Of a stretch of DNA of 64,000 bases, positions 1,495 to 37,403 are shown one piece after another (position 1 is the first letter of the stretch; the number at the start of each line of letters is the position of its first letter). Origin of the DNA: a virus (lineage: Duplodnaviria > Caudoviricetes); IMG/VR virus record IMGVR_UViG_3300022906_000002, positions 1 to 64,000 of that record; one strand, 5' to 3'. The position numbers and the translations under genes were made by a program. Below the pieces are notes generated by a model. It ran no database searches, was not told the origin of the DNA, and saw only the letters and a list, made by a program, of their open reading frames with translations.

Positions 1495-1662
1495 ATGAAA
1501 AACATAGACTTGGTTGGCCTTTCCGTCCTGCTCCCCCGCGAGCTACGCGACAACTTTCGCCAGAAGCTTGGGCGAGAGTCTCGCAAGGCATCCCCGCTGA
1601 TTACCACCTGGATTCAAAACTTCGTCGCGACCGGCGATCCGTCCGGCAAGGTGCCGTCGTGA
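1495..1662 (+). CDS. small ribbon-helix-helix-like DNA-binding protein (55 aa)
   Basis: Translated by hand: MKNIDLVGLSVLLPRELRDNFRQKLGRESRKASPLITTWIQNFV. GTGA overlap with cca. Confidence 0.55.
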   Translation: MKNIDLVGLSVLLPRELRDNFRQKLGRESRKASPLITTWIQNFVATGDPSGKVPS

Positions 1663-2930
1663 GGTTCTGCCGTTACTTGGTCGGCGGAGCCGTCCGCGAT
1701 CACCTGCTCGGCAAGGCCCCGGCCGATCGAGACTTCGTCGTCGTCGGCTCGACGCCCGAAGAAATGGATGCGCTCGGATTCAAGCCGGTCGGCGCATCGT
1801 TCCGGGTCTACCTCGATCCCGAGACGGGCGAAGAGCACGCGCTCGCGCGGCGGGAGCGAAAGATCGCCCCGGGCCATCGCGGCTTCGAGATCGAGTTCGG
1901 GCCGGAGGTCACGCTCGAAGAGGATCTCTCGCGGCGCGACCTAACCGTCAACGCAATCGCGATGGACCCGGAAAGCGGCGAGATCTTCGACCCTCTCGGC
2001 GGGCGAGCGGACCTGGAATCGAAAACGCTACGCGCGGCGAACCCGTCCGCCTTCGCCGATGATCCGGTTCGCGTTCTGAGGCTCGCTCGATTCGCGGCGA
2101 CGCTCGGTTTCGAGATCGAGGCTGAGACGCTGGCGCTTGCGCGGGTGGCGGTCGAAGGCGGAGAACTGGCGAGCGAGCCCGGCGAGAGGATCTACCAGGA
2201 GGCAACGCTGGCGCTGACGAAATGCTCGACTCCGAGCGTCTTCTTCCGCGTCCTCGAAGCGGCCGGAGCGCTCGCCGTGGTTCTTCCTGAACTTCACGCG
2301 TTGATCGGCGTCGAGCAGCCCGCGCACGGCCATCCGGAGGGCGACGCCTTCGAGCACACCATGATGGTGATCGATGCCGCGGCGCTTGGCTTGCCGGAGG
2401 TGGCTTGGGCCGCGCTCTGTCACGACTTCGGCAAGGCGCTCACTCCGCGCGAAGAGTGGCCCGCGCACCACCGGCACGAGAAGCGGGGGCTGGTACCGAT
2501 CGAGGCGGCGCTGCGGCGATTGAAGGCGCCGAACGAGGTTCTCGACTTCTCGCTCTCGGCCTGCCGCCACCATATGCGGATGCACCGCTGGCGAGAGCTG
2601 CGGGCGGGGACCGTTCTGGAGATCGTCGCGGAGTTCGGAGGGTTGCGCGGATGGAGCGGCGTCGCGAAATTCCTCAAGGTGTGCGACGCCGACACCGCGG
2701 GCCGGGACTTGCCAGAGGACGGCGCCGAGCTTCGAGACCGCGAGCGGTTCTTTCTCGAAGCGCGGCACCGGGCGGCGTCCGTTCTCGGCAAAGAGATCCT
2801 CGCAAGGGCGGCCGAGAGCGCCGCTCGCCGCGGAGTCCCGGCAAAAGCTCCTGGCGCCTGGGTTGGCGATGCGCTGCTCGCGGCTCGCATTCGGTCGATC
2901 GGTTCGATCTCTCGGGAGGTTCCGGCATGA
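1659..2930 (+). CDS. cca: tRNA nucleotidyltransferase (CCA-adding, class II) with HD domain
   Basis: YLVGGAVRD...DRDFVV, EDLSRRDLTVNAIA, DDPVRVLRLARFAA, HPEGDAFEHT, ALCHDFGK. Confidence 0.93.
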   Translation: MRFCRYLVGGAVRDHLLGKAPADRDFVVVGSTPEEMDALGFKPVGASFRVYLDPETGEEHALARRERKIAPGHRGFEIEFGPEVTLEEDLSRRDLTVNAIAMDPESGEIFDPLGGRADLESKTLRAANPSAFADDPVRVLRLARFAATLGFEIEAETLALARVAVEGGELASEPGERIYQEATLALTKCSTPSVFFRVLEAAGALAVVLPELHALIGVEQPAHGHPEGDAFEHTMMVIDAAALGLPEVAWAALCHDFGKALTPREEWPAHHRHEKRGLVPIEAALRRLKAPNEVLDFSLSACRHHMRMHRWRELRAGTVLEIVAEFGGLRGWSGVAKFLKVCDADTAGRDLPEDGAELRDRERFFLEARHRAASVLGKEILARAAESAARRGVPAKAPGAWVGDALLAARIRSIGSISREVPA

Positions 2931-3865
2931 GCAGCAAGGTGCAACATCTCGCGTTGAAGGGGCTAGTCTCGCCGCCGCCGTGGCTCCCGTCGAACGTGCA
3001 TTACGAAGCAGTTATGGGTTCGATGGCCTATGGTGTGGCCGAGAACGATTCAGATATGGACGTTTATGGTTTCGCGATCCCTCCCAAGACGATGATCTTT
3101 CCGCACTTGGCCGGCGAAATCGAAGGGTTCGGAACAAAGCTCCCGCGCTTCGAAGTCTGGCAACAGCACCACATCAAAGAACAGGACGCGCTCGGCGGTC
3201 GCGGTCGGGAATACGACTTCCAGATCTTCGGCATCGTGAAGTTCTTCCAGTTGTGCATGCAAAATAACCCCAACATGGTTGACGCCCTGTTTGTCCCGGG
3301 AAACTGCTTACTCCATTGCACCCGCCTCGGTCAGCGCGTCCGAGACCGGCGGCGAGACTTTCTACACAAAGGGAGCTATCACCGCTTCCGAGGCTACGCG
3401 CATGCGCAGCTCCACAAAATGCGCGGCGACCGCGACCGGCCGGAAGGTAAGCGCCGGGAGTCGGTTGAAAAGCACGGATTCGACGTGAAGTTCGCCTATC
3501 ACGTGGTCCGGCTCTTGGACGAAGCGGAACAGATCCTTGAAACCGGCGATTTAGTTCTCGGCCGCAACCGCGAGATCCTGAAGGAGATCCGGCGCGGCGA
3601 ATGGACCGAGGATCGAGTGCGGGAGTACTTCGCGGCGCGGGAGGATCATCTCTCGAATCTGTACCAGGACTCGAAGCTACCGCACGGGCCTGACGAAGGC
3701 GCGATCCGAGCGCTGCTTATGGAGTGCCTCGAAGAGCACTTCGGCTCGCTGGCGGCGGCCGTGGTGACTCCGGGCGCGGCCGAGCGGGCTTTGCGGGAGA
3801 TCGCGGCGAGTATGGAGAAGTACGAACTCGCGGCGGCGGCGTTGCCCGCGCTGGCGGAGCCGTGA
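2927..3865 (+). CDS. Pol-beta superfamily nucleotidyltransferase (RlaP/YcgL-like)
   Basis: GSMAYG..NDSDMD motif, NNPNM, FDVKFAYHVVRLL. ATGA overlap with cca. Confidence 0.85.
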   Translation: MSSKVQHLALKGLVSPPPWLPSNVHYEAVMGSMAYGVAENDSDMDVYGFAIPPKTMIFPHLAGEIEGFGTKLPRFEVWQQHHIKEQDALGGRGREYDFQIFGIVKFFQLCMQNNPNMVDALFVPGNCLLHCTRLGQRVRDRRRDFLHKGSYHRFRGYAHAQLHKMRGDRDRPEGKRRESVEKHGFDVKFAYHVVRLLDEAEQILETGDLVLGRNREILKEIRRGEWTEDRVREYFAAREDHLSNLYQDSKLPHGPDEGAIRALLMECLEEHFGSLAAAVVTPGAAERALREIAASMEKYELAAAALPALAEP

Positions 3866-8933: not shown

Positions 8934-9568
8934 AGCTGCGGGCGCTTGATCTGTTCTGCGGAGCCGGTGGGGTATCGGAAGGACTCCGTCGCGCGGGGTT
9001 TGAAGTGACCGGCGTCGATCTCGCCGAGCAGCCTAGATACCGCGGCGGTGTCTTCGTCCAGGACGACGCGCTCGAATACCCGCTTGGAGGCTTCGACTTC
9101 ATATGGGCCAGCCCGCCTTGCCAGGCGCACACCGCGCTCCGGAGCGTGACCGGCGGCCGCGAGTATCCCGACCTGATACCAGCAACCCGGGATCGGCTTC
9201 AAGGATCGGGCATTCCGTGGGTGATCGAGAACGTGCCGGGCGCCCCGCTGCGCCACGGCTTCATGCTCTGCGGTCAATCGTTCGGCCTGAAAGTCTATCG
9301 ACATCGCCTCTTTGAGCCTTCGTTCGGAGTGCTTTCGCCGCCGTGCCCGGGACATCCGGAAGCGGTCCCGAAGGCCGGTCGCGGGCCGAGTCCCGGAGGC
9401 TACATCTGCGTTACCGGAAACACTGTCGGAGCGGTTGAATTCGGCGGCCCAGCAATGGGCATCGACTGGATGAATCGGCGCGAACTCTCTCAAGCGATCC
9501 CGCCAGCGTATGCCGAATGGATCGGCTGGCATGCGGCAGAGCACATTCTTGCTAAGAGGGGCGTGTGA
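8930..9568 (+). CDS. short C5-cytosine DNA methyltransferase
   Basis: LDLFCGAGG, WASPPCQ, IENV, RHRLF, QAIPPAY. Confidence 0.88.
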   Translation: MKLRALDLFCGAGGVSEGLRRAGFEVTGVDLAEQPRYRGGVFVQDDALEYPLGGFDFIWASPPCQAHTALRSVTGGREYPDLIPATRDRLQGSGIPWVIENVPGAPLRHGFMLCGQSFGLKVYRHRLFEPSFGVLSPPCPGHPEAVPKAGRGPSPGGYICVTGNTVGAVEFGGPAMGIDWMNRRELSQAIPPAYAEWIGWHAAEHILAKRGV

Positions 9569-12430: not shown

Positions 12431-12605
12431 GCCTCGCGGGTGAATGGCACGGCAGGAGGATAGCGCGAGCGCTCCGGGGCCTGTCAATGCGTGGGTAGAA
12501 AGGTAACAGGCGCGGCAATTCGCCCCAGGGCATCTTGGGTGGTTCCAATGCTAGCTTGGACGATCTATATTTAGTCCAGAAGAGCAAACCAAGGAGAACG
12601 CGCCG

Positions 12606-23025: not shown

Positions 23026-24435
23026 ATGCCCATGAATACGCTACCTTTCCGCTTGGCCGTCTTCGTTGCGTTCGCCGCCGCATCGGCATCCGCGCAGACC
23101 AACAACGCGATCAAGGTTGCGCAGCTCCTGGAGTGCAACGCCCGGCGCCAAGGCCGAATGGTGACGGTCAGCGATGCGTCACCGGATTGCACGACAGGCA
23201 GCGGCGTGTCCGGCACTAAGTACGCATTGTGCATCTGTAATCCGGCGACCGGATGGTTCACGCTCTCCGCCGGTACGACCGGCGCCAGTTCGCCGACGGC
23301 CGAACAGAAGGCGGCCATGGGCGGCACGTCCGGCGCGCCAAGCGCGTCGAATCTCTTCGTCACCGATGCCGACTCGCGGAACGCGGATGCCCGGACCCCT
23401 ACGGCCCACCAGGCCAGCCATCTCCAGGGCGGATCGGATGCGCTCTCCGGCACGCTTGCCGTAAGCATTGCCGGCAACGCCGCGACCGCGACCTCAGCGA
23501 CGACGGCCGCTTCGGCAATCTCGGCAGCGACGGCGCTCGGGGTAAGCGGCTTTGCCGCGTCCAGGTGCGCCAGGTTCAACGGCAGCGGGGTCCTCGTGGC
23601 TGCGGCTGGCGACTGCGCTTCAGGCGACACGGACACCCAGGGCTCCGGCACGGTCACATCCGTTGCCGTGGCGACCGCGAACGGGATCAGCGGGATCGTA
23701 GCGAATGCGACCTCTACGCCGTATATCACCTTGAGTCTGGGAGCTATCACCCCGACTTCGGTCGCCGCCTCCGGAGCGGTCACCGCCTCCAATATCAGCG
23801 GCACGAATACAGGCGATCAGGTCAACATCTCGGGCAATGCGGCGACCGCGACGATGGCCGCCGGAGTCTCCGGCTTCACGGCCTCGCGATGCGCGCGCTT
23901 CAACTCTTCCGGGGTCCTGGTCGCGTCCTCGGGCGACTGTTCGGCAGGAGACACCAACGCGGGCGGTACGGTTACGACGGCATCGGTCACTTCGGCGAAT
24001 GGGGTGTCGGCGTCCGTGGCCAACGCCACGACGACTCCGGCGTTCACCTTCGCCCTCGGCGCGATTACCCCGTCCTCAGTGGCAGCAACGGGTGCCGTCA
24101 CCGGCTCGAACCTTTCGGGGACAAATACCGGCGATCAATCGAGCGTCACCGGGAATGCTGGCACGGCTACGGCGCTCGCATCCAACGGCTCTAACTGCGC
24201 GGCAGGGTTCCTCGCCGCTGGAGTAGACGCTTCGGGTAACGCCGAGGGATGCACGGCGGCCGGAGCGTTCTCGATCATGCAACTCACCCCGCGGGCCACT
24301 CCACCGTTCACCTGCGATGCCGGCCACGCGGGCGCCGTCTACTTCGACAACTCGGGATCTGGCACCTTTTGCGATTGTGCGGGCGACGGGTGGATTAACC
24401 GGTATACCCTGCGGCTCGGTAGCGGTTGCGTATGA
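23026..24435 (+). CDS. signal-peptide-bearing, Cys-containing fibre-like repeat protein
   Basis: RLAVFVAFAAASASA|Q signal; duplicated GF.ASRCARFN.SG.LVA and GTVT..ANG...SGTNTGDQ repeats. Confidence 0.7.
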   Translation: MPMNTLPFRLAVFVAFAAASASAQTNNAIKVAQLLECNARRQGRMVTVSDASPDCTTGSGVSGTKYALCICNPATGWFTLSAGTTGASSPTAEQKAAMGGTSGAPSASNLFVTDADSRNADARTPTAHQASHLQGGSDALSGTLAVSIAGNAATATSATTAASAISAATALGVSGFAASRCARFNGSGVLVAAAGDCASGDTDTQGSGTVTSVAVATANGISGIVANATSTPYITLSLGAITPTSVAASGAVTASNISGTNTGDQVNISGNAATATMAAGVSGFTASRCARFNSSGVLVASSGDCSAGDTNAGGTVTTASVTSANGVSASVANATTTPAFTFALGAITPSSVAATGAVTGSNLSGTNTGDQSSVTGNAGTATALASNGSNCAAGFLAAGVDASGNAEGCTAAGAFSIMQLTPRATPPFTCDAGHAGAVYFDNSGSGTFCDCAGDGWINRYTLRLGSGCV

Positions 24436-24439
24436 AGCC

Positions 24440-26203
24440 TTGGATCTCCAAACCCCCGTCCGCGTAGAAACCCTCGCCGACAAGGACGAGTGGTGGCCCC
24501 TCGAAGTCAGGCGCCGTCGCGATCGGGCCAAGGTATTCGACCGACTCGCGCGGTCCAAGTTGCCGGCCGACCACGCGATCATTGAAGCCGAGCGCGAGAG
24601 GTGCCGGCGAGACGTCAAGTACTGGATCGACAACTACTGTTGGACGAAGGCCCCGCAGGATCTCTCGCCCGACAATCCATACCGCGGCACCGTGCCCATG
24701 GTTCTCTGGCCGCGGCAGCGCGAGCTAATCGACTGGATTCTGGAGATGTACCACGCGGGCCGATCGGGGATCGTGCCGAAGGGGCGTGCGACCGGTGCCT
24801 CATGGATCATGTGCATGGTCATCTTCTGGCTGTGCTGGCATCAGCGAGGATTCGGGGCGCTGATGATTTCCAGGAAAGAGGACCTGGTCGACGATACGGG
24901 CAAGAACGACCGGAAGCGAGCGGCGGACGGAGGCGCGGCAGGCACGAGCACCGACTCGCTGTTCGGCAAGATGGACTTCATCTTGCGGTGCCAGCCGTCA
25001 TGGCTGCGGCCGCGGGTCGAGTTGCCGCGCGCGCCGATGGAGATGCGATTCCTGGACACCGATGCCCTGGTGACCGGCGAATCGACGAACGCCGGAGCCG
25101 GAGCCGGCCCCCGGAAATCGCTCAACTTCGTGGACGAGATGGCGAAGATGGAGCCCTCGATTCAGACTTCTCTCTGGCGTACGCTCGTTGCCGCGACCGG
25201 CCGATCGACGATTGCCGTCTCGTCACCCGGCAGCCCGTGGGCGCGCTTCGAGACTCTGCGGAAAGACTTGGAGCCCGATGCCGTTTTCGAGGTGGACTAC
25301 GACGCGGACCCGAGGCGCGATGAAGAATGGAAGCGGCGGGTCATCGCCAACCTCGGGGGCATTGACGACTTCCTGATCGAGCACGGCATGCGGCCCGTTC
25401 GCCCTTCCGCCGGACGCATCTGGTCGAAATCCACGTCGGGCTCCGTCTTCTACACCGATGCCCAGCTCTTCGACATCGAGCCGGACGCGCGGAAGAGGTG
25501 GCAAGTCTTCGGCGCGTGGGACTTCGGGAGCGGGCCGTCTCTTCTCGTGTGCTTCCTGTTCCTCGTCGAGTTCCGGGGCGGAGGGTACCGGCTATGGCTC
25601 GATCAGGAAATGACGTGGGAGCAAGAGGACTGGCGCAAGGTGGCGTCGGACATCCTCGACGGTAAGCAGGACGAGGATGGCGCCATCGTCGGCGGGCTGC
25701 GTCCGAACTATGAGAAATTCGGGATTCACTTCGGCGACCCCTCGGGCATCGCTCGGGAGTCCGATCAAAACTCCTGGGTAACGAATCTCCAATCGGGCGG
25801 CGTGCCGGTCCACGCGCTAGACGGAGAGTGCAACACCCGCGACCAGCGCGAATGGCAGATCCGCAAGGTCGGCGCCATGCTCTACGATGGCACGCTCCGG
25901 GTCCACGAGCGGTGCAAGTACGCGCTCGACTGTATCGATAGCTGGACGCGCGATATCCCGAAGGGCCAAACGGTCGAGAGCAGCGGGAGCGTGTACCTCA
26001 AGCCGAAGCACGACAAGTGGAGCCACGGGGGCACGGCTTTGTGCTTCGGGGTCGCGGGCATCCTGCCGGCGGCATCGGCCATGCTCGATGGCGGAAGCGG
26101 GTCGTCGGACTACCAGAGCGAGCGCGAGTACGGATACCACCCGGCCGCGCCGAGTTACATCGACGACGGCGGGAGTTTAGACTCGATTCTGGCGCAGTTG
26201 TGA
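24440..26203 (+). CDS. terL: terminase large subunit
   Basis: LWPRQ, PKGRATGASW (Walker A), FVDEMA (Walker B), VSSP, AWDFG, GDPSG. TTG start inferred. Confidence 0.88.
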   Translation: MDLQTPVRVETLADKDEWWPLEVRRRRDRAKVFDRLARSKLPADHAIIEAERERCRRDVKYWIDNYCWTKAPQDLSPDNPYRGTVPMVLWPRQRELIDWILEMYHAGRSGIVPKGRATGASWIMCMVIFWLCWHQRGFGALMISRKEDLVDDTGKNDRKRAADGGAAGTSTDSLFGKMDFILRCQPSWLRPRVELPRAPMEMRFLDTDALVTGESTNAGAGAGPRKSLNFVDEMAKMEPSIQTSLWRTLVAATGRSTIAVSSPGSPWARFETLRKDLEPDAVFEVDYDADPRRDEEWKRRVIANLGGIDDFLIEHGMRPVRPSAGRIWSKSTSGSVFYTDAQLFDIEPDARKRWQVFGAWDFGSGPSLLVCFLFLVEFRGGGYRLWLDQEMTWEQEDWRKVASDILDGKQDEDGAIVGGLRPNYEKFGIHFGDPSGIARESDQNSWVTNLQSGGVPVHALDGECNTRDQREWQIRKVGAMLYDGTLRVHERCKYALDCIDSWTRDIPKGQTVESSGSVYLKPKHDKWSHGGTALCFGVAGILPAASAMLDGGSGSSDYQSEREYGYHPAAPSYIDDGGSLDSILAQL

Positions 26204-26216
26204 GGTAGGATTGCAG

Positions 26217-26291
26217 AGTCGGGTAGAGGAGTCCGGAGTCCTCGGTGGTCTCATAAGCCGCAGATCGCGGGTTCAAATCCCGCCCCGGCAA
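26217..26291 (+). tRNA. tRNA with CAT anticodon (Met-type), no encoded CCA
   Basis: Cloverleaf: AGTCGGG/CCCGGCA, GAGG/CCTC, GTGGT-CTCATAA-GCCGC, GCGGG-TTCAAAT-CCCGC. Confidence 0.85.
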
Positions 26292-26295
26292 ATGC

Positions 26296-26372
26296 CTGAG
26301 CTTGGGCCAGTCTGGTCGGTCACCGCGTTTGGGGCGCGGACTACAGAGGTTCGAATCCTCTAGCTCAGACCA
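26296..26372 (+). tRNA. tRNA-Pro(TGG), CCA encoded
   Basis: CTGAGCT/AGCTCAG-A-CCA, CCGCG-TTTGGGG-CGCGG, AGAGG-TTCGAAT-CCTCT. Confidence 0.92.
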
Positions 26373-26639
26373 AAGATCTCTGCTCTGAGATTCCCCCGTC
26401 GACGGGGTCAGCATTGATCCGAGAGCCGTCCGATCCGGCGAGCGGGGAGTTGGCCCTAAGATCGGCGGCGGGGGATTCTGAGGGCGGCATCGAATCCTTG
26501 AACGAGTCCGGATCTTTCCTCTACGAGGACGGGAGGCGCGACGCGGATGGCGCCGAGAGCCGGGTTCGTTGAGGGATTTGAGTAGGCGCCGGGTAATGCT
26601 ACCGGCTCGCTGGCCGAGGGCAAGCGCGAAGGGATTTCA

Positions 26640-26765
26640 GGGATTGCGACCGAGTTGGCAGAGTGGGCGAATGCGACCGACGGCGGTCCTGTCGGTAATC
26701 TACGGTGCGAGCCTAAGCGCATCGGTCCGATTCGCGGGTTCGAATCCCGCACTCGCCGCAATCCC
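26640..26765 (+). ncRNA. atypical tRNA-like RNA
   Basis: Canonical D (TGGCAGAGTGG) and T (GCGGGTTCGAATCCCGC) arms; abnormal acceptor, anticodon and variable arms. Confidence 0.7.
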
Positions 26766-26790
26766 GGTTCTCCGGTGAGCGCGCACCGAT

Positions 26791-26820
26791 TTGACCGCAG
26801 CCGCCCGCCCGCGCTAACCT
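26791..26820 (+). promoter_or_regulatory. possible promoter
   Basis: TTGACC-18-TAACCT. Confidence 0.4.
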
Positions 26821-26863
26821 CTCCGATCGTGCAGCAGCGAACTATCGCGATCGGAGAAAGACA

Positions 26864-27871
26864 ATGAAGAGAATCGCCGTCTCGGTCGCGCTCGCGATCG
26901 GCATCGTTTCCGCCCTGCCGTCTCACGCACTCCCTGCCGGCAACTACTGCGTCGGCCATCAACTCGGACCGACCGGGCAGCACCTTCGCGCCCGAATCGT
27001 CGTCGTGGACGGCACCGGGGCGACCGGGTGCGACGTACGCGACATCGGGACCGCGAACGCCTACGTCGCCGCGCAAACCCGGGGCGCCGCGGCTCAGTGG
27101 ACCGTCATGGTCATGCCGGGCGCCAACAACACCACGTACAACTACACCGAGACGAGCGGCAGCGTTCCGAGCTGGACCACGATCGTCGGCCCGAGCGCGG
27201 CGAACCGTCCGATTCTTCGACTGACCGGCGTTACCGGGACGCTCCTCTCGATGGGAACTGGCGCAGCCATTCAGAACCTTGCGATCACGGTCGGTGGCAC
27301 CGCGGCGACGACCGGTGCGGTCAAGGTAGTGGCGACGACCGGGACCTCGGCTTCGCTGATCGACGTTTCGATCGCGGTGGGCTCGACGTTCGGCGACGCG
27401 CAGAACGTGGATCTCGTGAGCAACGATGCGGGCACCTTGGCTATGACTCGCGTGGACCTGTCGAAAACCGGCACGGCGACAAAGGTCCGGCTGCTGGTGA
27501 ATGGAGCGGCCGGAACAGCGATCACGGCGAGCGGCGGAAACTGGACCGCCGGAACCTCGCAAGCCAAGGGCGCCGAGAACCTGAACGCGTCCGGCACCCT
27601 CGCCCTCTCGGGCATCAAGATCCTGACCTCGGCGACCGCGGATCTCGCCGGGACGACCGGACCGATTACGCCTTCCCTCATGACCTATGGCGCCACCTCG
27701 GGTACCGTCACGCCGGCCGACGTTCGCGCTTCCCTGCTGTACGTCGCCGCCTGCACTCCGGCAAGCGCCTCCGCCACGTGCACGGCCGGCCAGGTGTGCT
27801 TGAACGCCACGTTCGTCTACTACTGCGCGGCGACGAATACATGGGTCCGCGGGGCGCTGGCCACGTGGTAA
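26864..27871 (+). CDS. signal-peptide-bearing beta-rich fibre-like protein
   Basis: MKRIAVSVALAIGIVSALPSHA|L; C-terminal TPASASATCTAGQVC..YYCAATNTW.R.ALATW fibre-tip-like motif. Confidence 0.65.
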   Translation: MKRIAVSVALAIGIVSALPSHALPAGNYCVGHQLGPTGQHLRARIVVVDGTGATGCDVRDIGTANAYVAAQTRGAAAQWTVMVMPGANNTTYNYTETSGSVPSWTTIVGPSAANRPILRLTGVTGTLLSMGTGAAIQNLAITVGGTAATTGAVKVVATTGTSASLIDVSIAVGSTFGDAQNVDLVSNDAGTLAMTRVDLSKTGTATKVRLLVNGAAGTAITASGGNWTAGTSQAKGAENLNASGTLALSGIKILTSATADLAGTTGPITPSLMTYGATSGTVTPADVRASLLYVAACTPASASATCTAGQVCLNATFVYYCAATNTWVRGALATW

Positions 27872-29020: not shown

Positions 29021-29221
29021 ATGCCGGAACTAAAGATGGTGACCGATCTCAACGGCTACGAAGGCTTCACGGGAGTGCAGATCGTCGATGGCGAGGAAGT
29101 CCTCGGCACCGCCGCGATCTTCAAGATGCAGGACGGCAAGTGGATTCTCAACCGGCCGGGCGTCTCGGCGGACCTCTGCCACGTGGACGAACTCAACCGC
29201 ATCGCCTTGGACGCGCCGTAG
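29021..29221 (+). CDS. hypothetical protein
   Basis: AGGAG RBS. Confidence 0.55.
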   Translation: MPELKMVTDLNGYEGFTGVQIVDGEEVLGTAAIFKMQDGKWILNRPGVSADLCHVDELNRIALDAP

Positions 29222-29225
29222 CCGC

Positions 29226-30614
29226 ATGCCGCCCGTCTCCCAAGCTAAGCGCCGCGAAGAGGTCCTGCCGTTCGGCGTGGCCTCGCTCGGGCGTCAGATC
29301 GCCTCGGAGACGGGCAAGCTGTTCCTCCTGGAACCCGAGGACCCGGTCCTCGCCCGCCTGGCGCACGAGAACCCGCACCGCCTGTATCAGCGCCTCGGGA
29401 TCACCGACGCCACGGTGGCCGGGGCCTGGTCTCAGATCGTCACGTGCCTTCTGGCCTATCCGATCGATCTACTCCCCGCCAGCTCGAAACAAGGGTACGG
29501 GCGCGAGCCGTCACGGGCGCAGCGTCGAATGCACCGCTACGTGCAGTCGGCGATCGATCAGGTCACGATGTGGGAAACGGTGCTCTGCCGGGCGCTCGAC
29601 GCGGTGGCCTGGGGATGGCGGCCCTTCGAGATCACGTACGACCGCGACCTGTACGTCATGGGCACCCGATACTGGCGGCCGGTGACGATGCGGGAGAAGG
29701 ACCCGAGCCTGTTCCGTTTCAACGGCAATCGCGATTTGGTGCTGGTGGCGACCCGGGAGTCGATGATTTTCGATGGCCCCGACGATCCGGCCCGGTGGTG
29801 GCTGTGCCAGAGCGGATCTCTGGATTGTCCGTACGGGATCGGCCTGTTTCAGCCGGCGTGGCTCCCGTCGTATCTCAAGAGCCAATACCTCACGCTATGG
29901 AAGGCCGGACTCACGCGCCAGAACGGCGTCCTCCGGGTGAAGTCGTCGAAGCCGGCGGATGTGAACCTGACGAACCCTAGCACCGCCGTCTCACCGCGGC
30001 AGACGGTATCCGCTGTCGTCGCGGCCGCCCGGGAGATGATGCGGGCCGTGAACGAGGACGGCATTCTGGTCACGATGAACGGCTTCGAGGCAAGCTTCGA
30101 GGAAGGTCTGACGGCGAGCGCCGACACATTCCAGGGGCCGATCAGCTATCTCGACGGGCTGATCAATTTGGTGCTGTTGGGGCAGCAGCTCACGGCGGCA
30201 TCGGCCAAGGACACCAGTTCGCGGGCGGCCGGCGAAGTGGCGCGGAAGACGACGATCGACCGGGCGCGAGGTGTCGGCGGATCGCTCGTTGGCATGCTCA
30301 ACGTTCTGGTCGGCATGCTCTGCCGCTTGAACTTCGGGGACGACGCGGACCCCGCCGACTTCCCCTATTGGCGATCCCAGATCGACCGCACATCTAAGCT
30401 CGACGCAGCGGCCAAGCTCTTCGCGATGGGCGCGATCATCGACGGTAACCAGCTCGCCGAGGATTCAGGGGTGCCGCTGCTCAAAGAGGGAGAGCCCGGA
30501 GCGCTACAGAAGACGGCGGCCACGGCTGACTTGACCGTTGATTCCGCTACCCAAGGCGACCCGCAGAACACCGGGGACGCCGCGACCGGTGAGCAGGACG
30601 CGGCGTCCGGGTAG
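29226..30614 (+). CDS. portal protein (Mu gp29/DUF935-like)
   Basis: LDAVAWGW..FEI, PYGIGL...W.P..LK, LLGQQLT..SSRAAGEV, LNFG; position after terL. Confidence 0.8.
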   Translation: MPPVSQAKRREEVLPFGVASLGRQIASETGKLFLLEPEDPVLARLAHENPHRLYQRLGITDATVAGAWSQIVTCLLAYPIDLLPASSKQGYGREPSRAQRRMHRYVQSAIDQVTMWETVLCRALDAVAWGWRPFEITYDRDLYVMGTRYWRPVTMREKDPSLFRFNGNRDLVLVATRESMIFDGPDDPARWWLCQSGSLDCPYGIGLFQPAWLPSYLKSQYLTLWKAGLTRQNGVLRVKSSKPADVNLTNPSTAVSPRQTVSAVVAAAREMMRAVNEDGILVTMNGFEASFEEGLTASADTFQGPISYLDGLINLVLLGQQLTAASAKDTSSRAAGEVARKTTIDRARGVGGSLVGMLNVLVGMLCRLNFGDDADPADFPYWRSQIDRTSKLDAAAKLFAMGAIIDGNQLAEDSGVPLLKEGEPGALQKTAATADLTVDSATQGDPQNTGDAATGEQDAASG

Positions 30615-36923: not shown

Positions 36924-37403
36924 ATGCCGTGGAGCGATTACGAGGCGGTTCTGTTGCAGATTCCGGAGGCGGAAGCCGAACGGATCGCAACGGAGCATGG
37001 CGCGTCGGAAGGAGGGTCGCCCACATTCGAGGAGTGGTGGGTGGCCCGAATCGATGCGGCCGTGCCATTGGTCCTCGGGACGCTTCGCGGCAACGGGTAC
37101 AGTCCGCCCGATGACCCGGCCGAGTTGACGGCTGCTGACGCCTTGCTTCTATCCGAGGCCATCGCGCAGCAAGCCGTCCTTGAGGCGAGGCCGCACGAGG
37201 TTCGGGTAGGCGGCGGCGAGAAGTACCCGGTAGCCGAGCTGTGCATCCGCCTACGTCAGATCGTCGGGGGGATTGTGCGCCTCGACATGTCGGCGGAGTC
37301 GGCGCCGTCGGCCGTCTTCATCCCGGGCACGGTCAACGCCCCGGGCTACCGCCGGCCGCTCTGGTATGACGACTTCGTCGGCTGCGATTCGTGGTGGCCC
37401 TAA
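36924..37403 (+). CDS. putative head-tail adaptor
   Basis: Synteny; GYS.P...LRQIVGG.VRL resembles Mu gp36-type adaptors. Confidence 0.5.
   Translation: MPWSDYEAVLLQIPEAEAERIATEHGASEGGSPTFEEWWVARIDAAVPLVLGTLRGNGYSPPDDPAELTAADALLLSEAIAQQAVLEARPHEVRVGGGEKYPVAELCIRLRQIVGGIVRLDMSAESAPSAVFIPGTVNAPGYRRPLWYDDFVGCDSWWP

Follow-up and report, generated by a model that had tools for sequence, protein, structure and literature searches.

A tRNA-shaped element downstream of a phage terminase gene is unable to decode by standard rules

The window analyzed here is the first 64 kb (positions 1 to 64,000) of a 96.7-kb virus record of the Caudoviricetes (IMGVR_UViG_3300022906_000002), which has 65% G+C and is estimated to be 73% complete. 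Downstream of its large terminase gene lies a tRNA-shaped element of 126 nt, at 26640–26765 on the plus strand, with its arms in the normal tRNA order. The element is unable to decode by standard rules. We read it tentatively, a little short of an even call, as a tRNA-derived RNA gene that keeps the top half of the molecule (the acceptor/T minihelix and the D/T elbow) and has lost both working ends. That it acts as a free RNA mimicking the tRNA shape is a possibility of about the same weight, nearly but not quite as probable as its opposite. The parts of the element are located as follows.

26640–26648 with 26757–26765, plus strand: acceptor extension (leader-trailer helix), nine perfect pairs, pair probability at least 0.95
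A26649 and C26650 opposite C26756, plus strand: 2x1 internal loop
26649–26655, plus strand: acceptor 5' strand, tRNA positions 1–7 in the Rfam alignment, positions 1–2 unpaired
26651–26655 with 26751–26755, plus strand: acceptor helix, five pairs
26656–26675, plus strand: U8, G9, D arm and G26, placed by the tRNA-model alignment with high posterior probability
26676–26696, plus strand: hairpin 1, in the place of the anticodon arm, pair probability 0.90–0.97
26697–26733, plus strand: variable arm, 37 nt, treated by Rfam as a 35-nt insertion
26734–26750, plus strand: T arm, fully canonical, GCGGG-UUCGAAU-CCCGC
26751–26765, plus strand: acceptor 3' strand, discriminator G and 3' strand of the extension, with no CCA

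The elbow is complete, and U8, A14, G15-C48, G18, G19, A21, G53, T54, T55, C56, A58 and C61 are all present. The D arm (26658–26674) consists of three base pairs, GCA/UGC, plus G13·A22, and its 9-nt loop holds A14, G15, G18, G19 and A21. The T arm matches that of the neighboring tRNA-Met at 18 of 19 positions. A first-pass annotation, made from the letters alone, had described both arms as canonical, and both were found where it placed them. The 3' end is not free but pairs with the leader for 9 bp, giving an interrupted 14-bp helix overall; the same annotation had proposed this helix, with its AC/C loop and without CCA, and it was recovered as 9 + 5 pairs. In the Rfam alignment, 1:72 (A·C) and 2:71 (C·C) are non-pairs. 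Hairpin 1 is formed by ACCGACGG and CUGUCGGU, with 8 bp closing a 5-nt loop CGGUC, or alternatively with 5 bp and an 11-nt loop. The variable arm, for which about 37 nt had been estimated, has a 4-bp base AAUC/GAUU, an internal loop and a 7-bp helix CGGUGCG/CGCAUCG with the 8-nt loop AGCCUAAG, and is followed by C48. Every helix of the first description could be located in the sequence. Its argument that such pairing speaks against simple decay is plausible, given that the elbow nucleotides and helices are intact. Short repeats also occur inside the element. GA(T/A)TGCGACCGA is present as a direct repeat at 26642–26653 (leader and acceptor strand) and 26669–26680 (end of the D arm and start of hairpin 1), and TCGGT and CGGTCC occur twice each. 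The direct repeats could reflect alternative pairings or a history of duplication. An internal duplication of larger size was considered and rejected: compared by eye, the 32 nt that follow each of the two (G/T)CGGTCC words agree at about 34% of positions, which is near random.

No register of hairpin 1 offers a 7-nt loop with U33 and a purine at position 37. The loop has 11 nt with a 5-bp stem, 9 nt with a 6-bp stem and 5 nt with an 8-bp stem, and no U follows position 32, which confirms in every register the earlier description of a 6–8-bp anticodon arm whose loop lacks U33 and purine 37. Without a 7-nt loop and without U33, the element cannot decode. At default settings ARAGORN makes no tRNA call on the element, where a low or undetermined score had been expected, and finds no tmRNA. 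With introns allowed, it returns a tRNA(GCG) with a 34-nt intron, in which ACCGA pairs with the second TCGGT; this model has G33 and a 7-nt variable loop. We rejected the spliced form because of G33 and because we know of no bacterial or phage machinery for excising such short introns. The view of the first-pass annotation that the RNA is non-decoding is thus supported by the anatomy, the only ARAGORN call being the one with a forced 34-nt intron and G33. A working tRNA, either charged and decoding with an expanded loop or spliced from the 34-nt intron to a class I tRNA, would be in line with an Rfam score above the cut-off, with the tRNA(GCG) call and with the CCA-adding enzyme of the phage. 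It is nevertheless very unlikely. Besides G33, the 7-nt variable loop and the lack of known intron-removal machinery, it would have to accommodate two mismatches at the acceptor end and the absence of a free 3' end, and there is no sign of recoding, as table 11 gives normal translations of the terminase and portal genes.

The Rfam tRNA model RF00005 aligns end to end with 26649–26758 at 31.1 bits, above its gathering threshold of 29 bits, with an E-value of 1.9e-4 in a local search and 5.6e-6 over the whole phage record. To fit the element, the model has to accept 10 inserted nt in the anticodon loop and 35 in the variable region. A whole-window Rfam run with default filters did not report the element, and the same run missed tRNA-Pro. 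The 31 bits come from the top half only, and in this sense they are not the score of the ordinary Ser, Leu or Sec tRNA that the first-pass annotation had named as the outcome that would count against it. The extension 9-mer GGGATTGCG occurs exactly twice in the 64 kb, both strands counted, and these two copies are the two extension arms. With no further exact copy in the window, a chance pairing is improbable for the extension. The five-helix cloverleaf folds at −55.0 kcal/mol, compared with −57.9 for the minimum free energy (MFE) structure. The ensemble is dominated by the extension, acceptor, hairpin 1 and T helices, all with pair probabilities above 0.83, while the variable-arm fold is one of several competitors, with a probability of about 0.33 for its 7-bp helix. 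The element is more than chance.

From its sequence, the element appears clearly to derive from an ordinary tRNA of the Ser/Cys/Tyr D-arm group, with the isotype not settled. Its type of D arm is present in 57 viral contigs, mostly in canonical tRNA-Ser, tRNA-Cys and tRNA-Tyr genes, and the D arm itself recurs unchanged in a tRNA-Tyr of a 118-kb phage contig (L110). The T arm and the 3' acceptor strand (ACTCGCC) are identical to a tRNA-Cys 3' fragment in another contig (L125), and the 3' strand has discriminator G and ACUC.CC as in phage tRNA-Ser. The attP sites of phages often copy the 3' halves of tRNAs, and the L125 fragment, which shares its T arm and acceptor strand with the element, would agree with the element being an attP site or another DNA-level copy of a host tRNA. 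We give this very little credence, as the least probable of the explanations. The element has a complete 5' half, with acceptor strand and D arm; its exact 3' half is absent from 401 sampled Pseudomonadota genomes, and a scan of the genome collection did not recover its D arm. No tyrosine integrase (PF00589) and no reverse transcriptase are present in the 73%-complete record.

The element lies in a stretch of 660 nt (26204–26863) that is non-coding, as it lacks the codon-position G+C bias seen in the frame plot of the flanking genes. The stretch holds, all on the plus strand, tRNA-Met, tRNA-Pro, a structured spacer of 267 nt and the element, followed by the promoter of the next gene. Its immediate neighbors are the terminase gene and the gene of a secreted fiber-like protein; the gene after the stretch starts at 26864 and encodes 335 aa. 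These and other features of the window are as follows.

24317–26203, plus strand: large terminase gene (PHROG terminase large subunit)
26217–26291, plus strand: tRNA-Met(CAU), ARAGORN, Rfam 45.7 bits
26296–26372, plus strand: tRNA-Pro(UGG), ARAGORN, Rfam 47 bits
26373–26639, plus strand: structured spacer, with hairpin A at 26380–26487 and hairpin B at 26490–26581
26773–26788, plus strand: small hairpin after the element, then AUUU; fails a consensus terminator scan
26791–26819, plus strand: promoter-like TTGAC-N18-CTAACC of the downstream gene, the 3' bound of the element
12458–12487, minus strand, and 37125–37154, plus strand: further copies of the promoter-like motif
29088–30614: Mu-type portal gene (Pfam)

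CCA is encoded in the tRNA-Pro gene, and neither in the tRNA-Met gene nor in the element. The acceptor end of tRNA-Met(CAU) has an A1·A72 mismatch, and its counterpart in a related contig (L007, 7753–7829) has C1·A72. This end is initiator-like, yet the anticodon stem lacks the three initiator G-C pairs, and a tRNA-Ile2 (CAU) type is equally possible.

The element is an orphan in our scans of viral, metagenome and genome contigs, as judged by sequence matches. A blastn search of 26100–26900 against 50,697 GenBank phages matched only tRNA-Met, for which the closest sequences are Caulobacter and Brevundimonas phage tRNAs (about 81% over 70 nt). Exact and degenerate pattern scans of the contigs found nothing sharing the middle part or the extension, and returned other tRNAs and irregular tRNA-like genes. 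Relatives were traced by synteny, through the terminase (54–57% identity) and the downstream 335-aa protein (59–77%), and the interval from the terminase to the next gene was compared at the DNA level in three of them (L007, L052 and L054). None of the three has the element. After the terminase gene, L007 has tRNA-Met only, and L052 and L054 have no tRNA; tRNA-Pro is thus missing in all three and tRNA-Met in two, and the content of the interval differs in every relative. Intervals of 0.3–1.1 kb lie at the same place in three further contigs (P0003, P0004 and P0023), and the more distant terminase relatives in IMG/VR are without a neighboring tRNA. Because the undoubted tRNA-Pro is equally absent, absence from relatives is not evidence of non-function. 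It appears to reflect the turnover of a hot spot, and the element may be an accessory gene that is gained and lost like the real tRNAs of the phage.

The same turnover suits a different explanation, in which the element is a rearranged relic, i.e. a phage tRNA of Cys, Ser or Tyr type broken by a few events of insertion, duplication or template switching, and now a non-functional passenger in the hot spot, too recent for its elbow to show decay. Its orphan status beside an interval that varies in every relative is as expected for such a passenger. The internal short repeats GA(T/A)TGCGACCGA, TCGGT and CGGTCC, each present twice, suggest slippage or template switching, the identities of the D arm with tRNA-Tyr and of the T arm and acceptor strand with tRNA-Cys point to an ordinary tRNA with additions, and the mismatched 1:72 and 2:71 fit as well. 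A relic would, however, have undergone at least three separate remodelings, of the loop, the variable arm and the leader-trailer, each of them giving clean helices and none touching the conserved elbow. Comparable irregular tRNA-like genes elsewhere appear to be under purifying selection, and phage genomes are compact. We consider the relic unlikely on balance, but it is a rival to be taken seriously.

The spacer upstream of the element is strongly structured, with an MFE of −133.7 kcal/mol (z = −3.9, none of 200 shuffles as good), compared with z = −0.6 for the reverse strand. Hairpin B is kept in L052 (1031–1112), a phage without tRNAs, with 81–87% identity, a compensatory exchange of C-G to U-A and z = −4.2. 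The spacer matches no Rfam family. Decayed tRNAs in it were considered and rejected, as the T-loop-like words at 26485–26497 and 26573–26581 are the two arms of hairpin B. The promoter-like motif, in the form TTGAC-N17-19-CTANCC, is found three times in the window against 0.06 expected, and it also precedes the homologous downstream gene in L007, L052 and L054; from its sequence it looks like the phage's own promoter, of alphaproteobacterial type. No promoter of this type lies in front of the element. With none before it and a conserved one after it, the element would most simply be transcribed as the tail of a terminase-tRNA unit, and the terminase gene is likely the start of that unit. Beyond the promoter, a 12-bp hairpin (26820–26857, plus strand) holds in its 3' arm the GGAGA ribosome-binding site of the gene at 26864 and, judging by this placement, may control its translation; the region is in part conserved in L052. 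An antisense regulator of the downstream gene was rejected: the element has short complementarities to 26870–26895, and the duplex energies with this region (−64.5 and −70.5) are not unusual, the genome-wide mean being −62.8 (sd 8.0).

The position at the end of a transcript also allows a role in cis, as ‘tRNA punctuation’, in which the element recruits RNase P or RNase Z or caps the RNA against 3' exonucleases, without functioning as a free RNA. It closes the series of structures ahead of the next promoter, it follows a long and strongly structured spacer on the same strand, it has no recognizable promoter of its own, and its internal loop lies exactly at the expected RNase P cut position. 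The tRNA-like domain of Mycobacterium smegmatis YrlA can be cut by RNase P (PMC4201824), which counts for this explanation too. The relatives, however, lack the element, and L052 conserves hairpin B instead; the elaborate hairpin 1 and variable arm would be unnecessary for such a role. We find a purely cis-acting element improbable.

As a free tRNA-shaped RNA, the element would be bound through its intact elbow by factors that read the tRNA shape, such as RNase P, T-loop modifying enzymes, CCA-adding enzymes and tRNA-directed nucleases. Its 3' end is buried in the interrupted 14-bp helix and its lower hairpin of 8 bp is very stable; since it does not decode either, it would present these factors with a look-alike that resists cleavage. 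It could then serve as a decoy or sponge for a host factor recognizing the tRNA shape, most plausibly a tRNA-targeting defense nuclease, although the partner, whether a defense nuclease, RNase P or a CCA enzyme, is our inference. The damage is non-random, which argues for a mimic: the anticodon loop, the variable region and positions 1–2 are remodeled, while the elbow and every helix are intact. A mimic is also favored by the uniqueness of the 9-bp extension in the 64 kb, by a tRNA-model score above the cut-off and by the non-coding character of the region. The phage also seems to invest in the maintenance of tRNA ends, as indicated by two adjacent genes.

1659–2930, plus strand: CCA-adding-type enzyme (PolyA_pol head, RNA-binding domain, HD)
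about 2927–3865, plus strand: RlaP-family nucleotidyltransferase, directly after the CCA-adding enzyme

By their sequences, the two are a candidate pair for tRNA 3'-end repair. The first-pass annotation had suggested a partnership with phage RNA-repair enzymes; these genes are real, but they lie 24 kb from the element, the record contains no RtcB, and nothing supports the partnership directly. The 96.7-kb record (73% complete) also has no Ro/TROVE (PF05731) gene. In five other phages, four with irregular tRNA-like genes and L110 with the canonical tRNA-Tyr, the CCA-adding enzyme is found in none and RlaP in one, so a link of these enzymes to irregular tRNA-like genes is not general. By analogy, precedents for a mimic may be seen in the non-decoding tRNA-like genes of other phages (L005, L028/L075, L080, L011 and L017).

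Several points weigh against a functional mimic. The element is a lone sequence, with no homolog in the collections scanned that could show covariation. Its D stem and the base of its variable arm are not favored by thermodynamic folding alone; such a weakness is common when tRNAs are folded with tertiary interactions left out of account. The 126 nt fold with a modest z-score of −2.3, and the 110-nt core with one of −0.6. Template-switch (quasi-palindrome) mutation can give rise to perfect helices even in the absence of selection. None of the loops is similar to a known nuclease target, and the decoy for anticodon nucleases proposed in the first-pass annotation found no direct support. No protein partner is linked to the element, the neighbors being the terminase and the secreted fiber-like protein.

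The precedents are of several kinds. The same D arm with a canonical T arm and a non-decoding middle is found in L005, L028 (=L075), L080, L011 (=L024), L017, L008/L029 and L006 (=L019). One group was traced further, in phages of about 42 kb with a primase-polymerase. Behind their conserved exonuclease gene lies a gap that contains a promoter-like site, a 20-nt leader and an irregular tRNA-like RNA. The loci of this post-exonuclease family are as follows.

L005, 6277–6881, minus strand
L028, 9394–10188
L126, 3160–3605
L129, 1658–1929
L130, 3295–3964
L132, 3183–3637
L133, 3119–3555

In this family the leader CTCGGCGGAGGATAAACGTG is conserved, a C·A mismatch at 2:71 is invariant, the T arm is canonical, the acceptor helix continues beyond position 1 and the middle is hypervariable. 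The D arm is missing from some members, another member contains three T-arm-like hairpins, and at some loci the RNA is present in two copies. Those with the D-arm type (L005, L028, L130 and L132) show compensatory pairs in the acceptor and T stems (C-G/G-C, G-C/A-U and U-A/A-U); the flanking protein is 44–65% identical among them, and the middle varies in length and sequence. Two complete genomes of the 42-kb group have no canonical tRNA. From such comparisons, phages appear to maintain non-decoding tRNA-shaped RNAs under selection. The element in the window is like this family in its D arm, its canonical T arm, an acceptor mismatch near the end, a helix beyond position 1 and a non-decoding variable middle. 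It lacks the 20-nt leader, the C·A at 2:71 and the replication-module context, however, and its middle is unrelated, so that the family may support a function of the element by analogy only. A broader proposal is that there is an undescribed class of phage ‘top-half tRNA’ RNAs, which keep the elbow and a protected 3' end, evolve freely in the lower half and serve as uncleavable decoys for defense nucleases or for enzymes that attack tRNA ends, with L005, L028, L130 and L132 as another instance; we regard a class of this breadth as distinctly doubtful. The leader CTCGGCGGAGGATAAACGTG of the family also resembles a ribosome-binding site with a GTG start.

Other irregular genes turned up in the same scans. 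L017 has an array of 35–36 tRNA genes and a tmRNA in 9 kb, and at the end of the array lies an irregular tRNA-like gene; this Ser-bodied tRNA-like (9148–9230, plus strand) has an 8-bp stem and an 8-nt loop without U33. Ser-bodied tRNAs with very long variable arms are present in bacterial metagenome-assembled genomes (MAGs; L112, L115, L118 and L123) and in metagenome contigs (L009, L015, L021, L022, L025 and L031). They have the non-Ser anticodons GCA, AAG, GAA and UAG and come from Acidobacteriaceae, Holophagales, Armatimonadota and one Pseudomonadota MAG. The oversize Ser-bodied tRNAs of the four bacterial genomes all keep 7-nt loops and are allo-tRNA-like. Low-G+C soil contigs (L014, L018, L023, L026 and L119) carry tRNA-Ser(UGA)-like genes whose anticodon loop is enlarged by about 18 inserted nt; two of these (L014 and L018) are half copies with one acceptor strand unmatched.

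Phage tRNAs are now understood as weapons against immunity that cuts tRNA. If the element is a mimic, it would represent a second strategy, which titrates the attacker or hijacks tRNA-handling enzymes rather than replacing the lost tRNA. It would also illustrate from nature how extensively a tRNA can be remodeled in its lower half and at its ends with the core of the L-shape kept. Being a single unconserved sequence, it is chiefly of value as a lead, alongside the better-supported irregular tRNA-like family of other phages.

Compared with a canonical tRNA, the element reaches the RF00005 score and has the conserved elbow, but it lacks a 7-bp acceptor with paired 1:72 and a free 3' end, and it lacks the 7-nt loop with U33 and purine 37. 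It adds a 9-bp leader-trailer helix and a variable arm of 37 nt, where 4–5 or 13–21 nt are normal. With tRNAs that have the UGGCAGAGUGGNCGAAUGC D arm, i.e. class II tRNA-Ser and tRNA-Tyr and class I tRNA-Cys, it shares U8, the D arm, G26, the T arm, the Levitt pair and the 3' acceptor strand. A tRNA-Sec is marked by an 8-bp acceptor, a 6-bp D stem with a 4-nt loop and a UCA anticodon; the element has a 3-bp D stem with a 9-nt loop and no UCA loop, the generic tRNA model won the clan competition, and this assignment was rejected. A tmRNA has a tRNA-like domain without D stem, a tag reading frame and pseudoknots. It was rejected as well, because ARAGORN finds no tmRNA and the element has a D stem and only 126 nt. 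T4 RNAC and RNAD have tRNA-like features, and their genes lie in the tRNA cluster of that phage; the element, downstream of two tRNA genes, has a comparable location. Like the element, they are small RNAs encoded by a phage, with no function assigned (PMC9697503); host and phage type differ, and no sequence relation is expected.

Allo-tRNAs and other irregular tRNAs with a Ser-like body and a long variable arm are found in phages and soil metagenomes (PMC5389517; review PMC7609411). Five-stem junctions have been described among them, and some members do not function in translation; for these, a regulatory role or a connection with toxin-antitoxin systems is suspected (PMC5389517; PMC7609411). 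Allo-tRNAs are defined by a 12-bp acceptor branch with an 8/4 or 9/3 split between acceptor and T stem, and they keep 7-nt anticodon loops (PMC5389517). The element likewise has a long variable arm on a Ser-like body, but its T stem has 5 bp, its acceptor 5 bp plus a loop, and its loop is undecodable; without the 8/4 or 9/3 split it was not accepted as an allo-tRNA. Irregular tRNA-like genes in phage tRNA clusters are known already, and the element is a variant of them. The role of phage tRNAs in counter-defense is established, and changes in the anticodon arm make some of them poor nuclease substrates (PMC10264068; PMC11555353). These are also tRNA-cluster genes, but they still decode and replace the depleted host tRNA, while the element, which cannot decode, could only titrate.

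YrlA-type Y RNAs are non-coding tRNA mimics with canonical D and T arms, which are recognized by tRNA enzymes and closed by a long stem formed by their ends; they are linked to RNA-repair operons and occur in phages too (PMC4201824). They are permuted, in that their ends leave at the anticodon position and the acceptor is a closed stem-loop, and they lie beside a Ro60 gene (PMC4201824). In the element the ends leave at the acceptor and the tRNA order is normal, no Ro gene is present in the record, and no Y-RNA family of Rfam matches it at E-values up to 10, so that it was rejected as a YrlA Y RNA on both topology and the Ro60 neighbor. It is nevertheless likewise a non-coding mimic with canonical D and T arms and a long closing stem, and by this analogy its way of working would be closest to that of the YrlA-type tRNA mimics.

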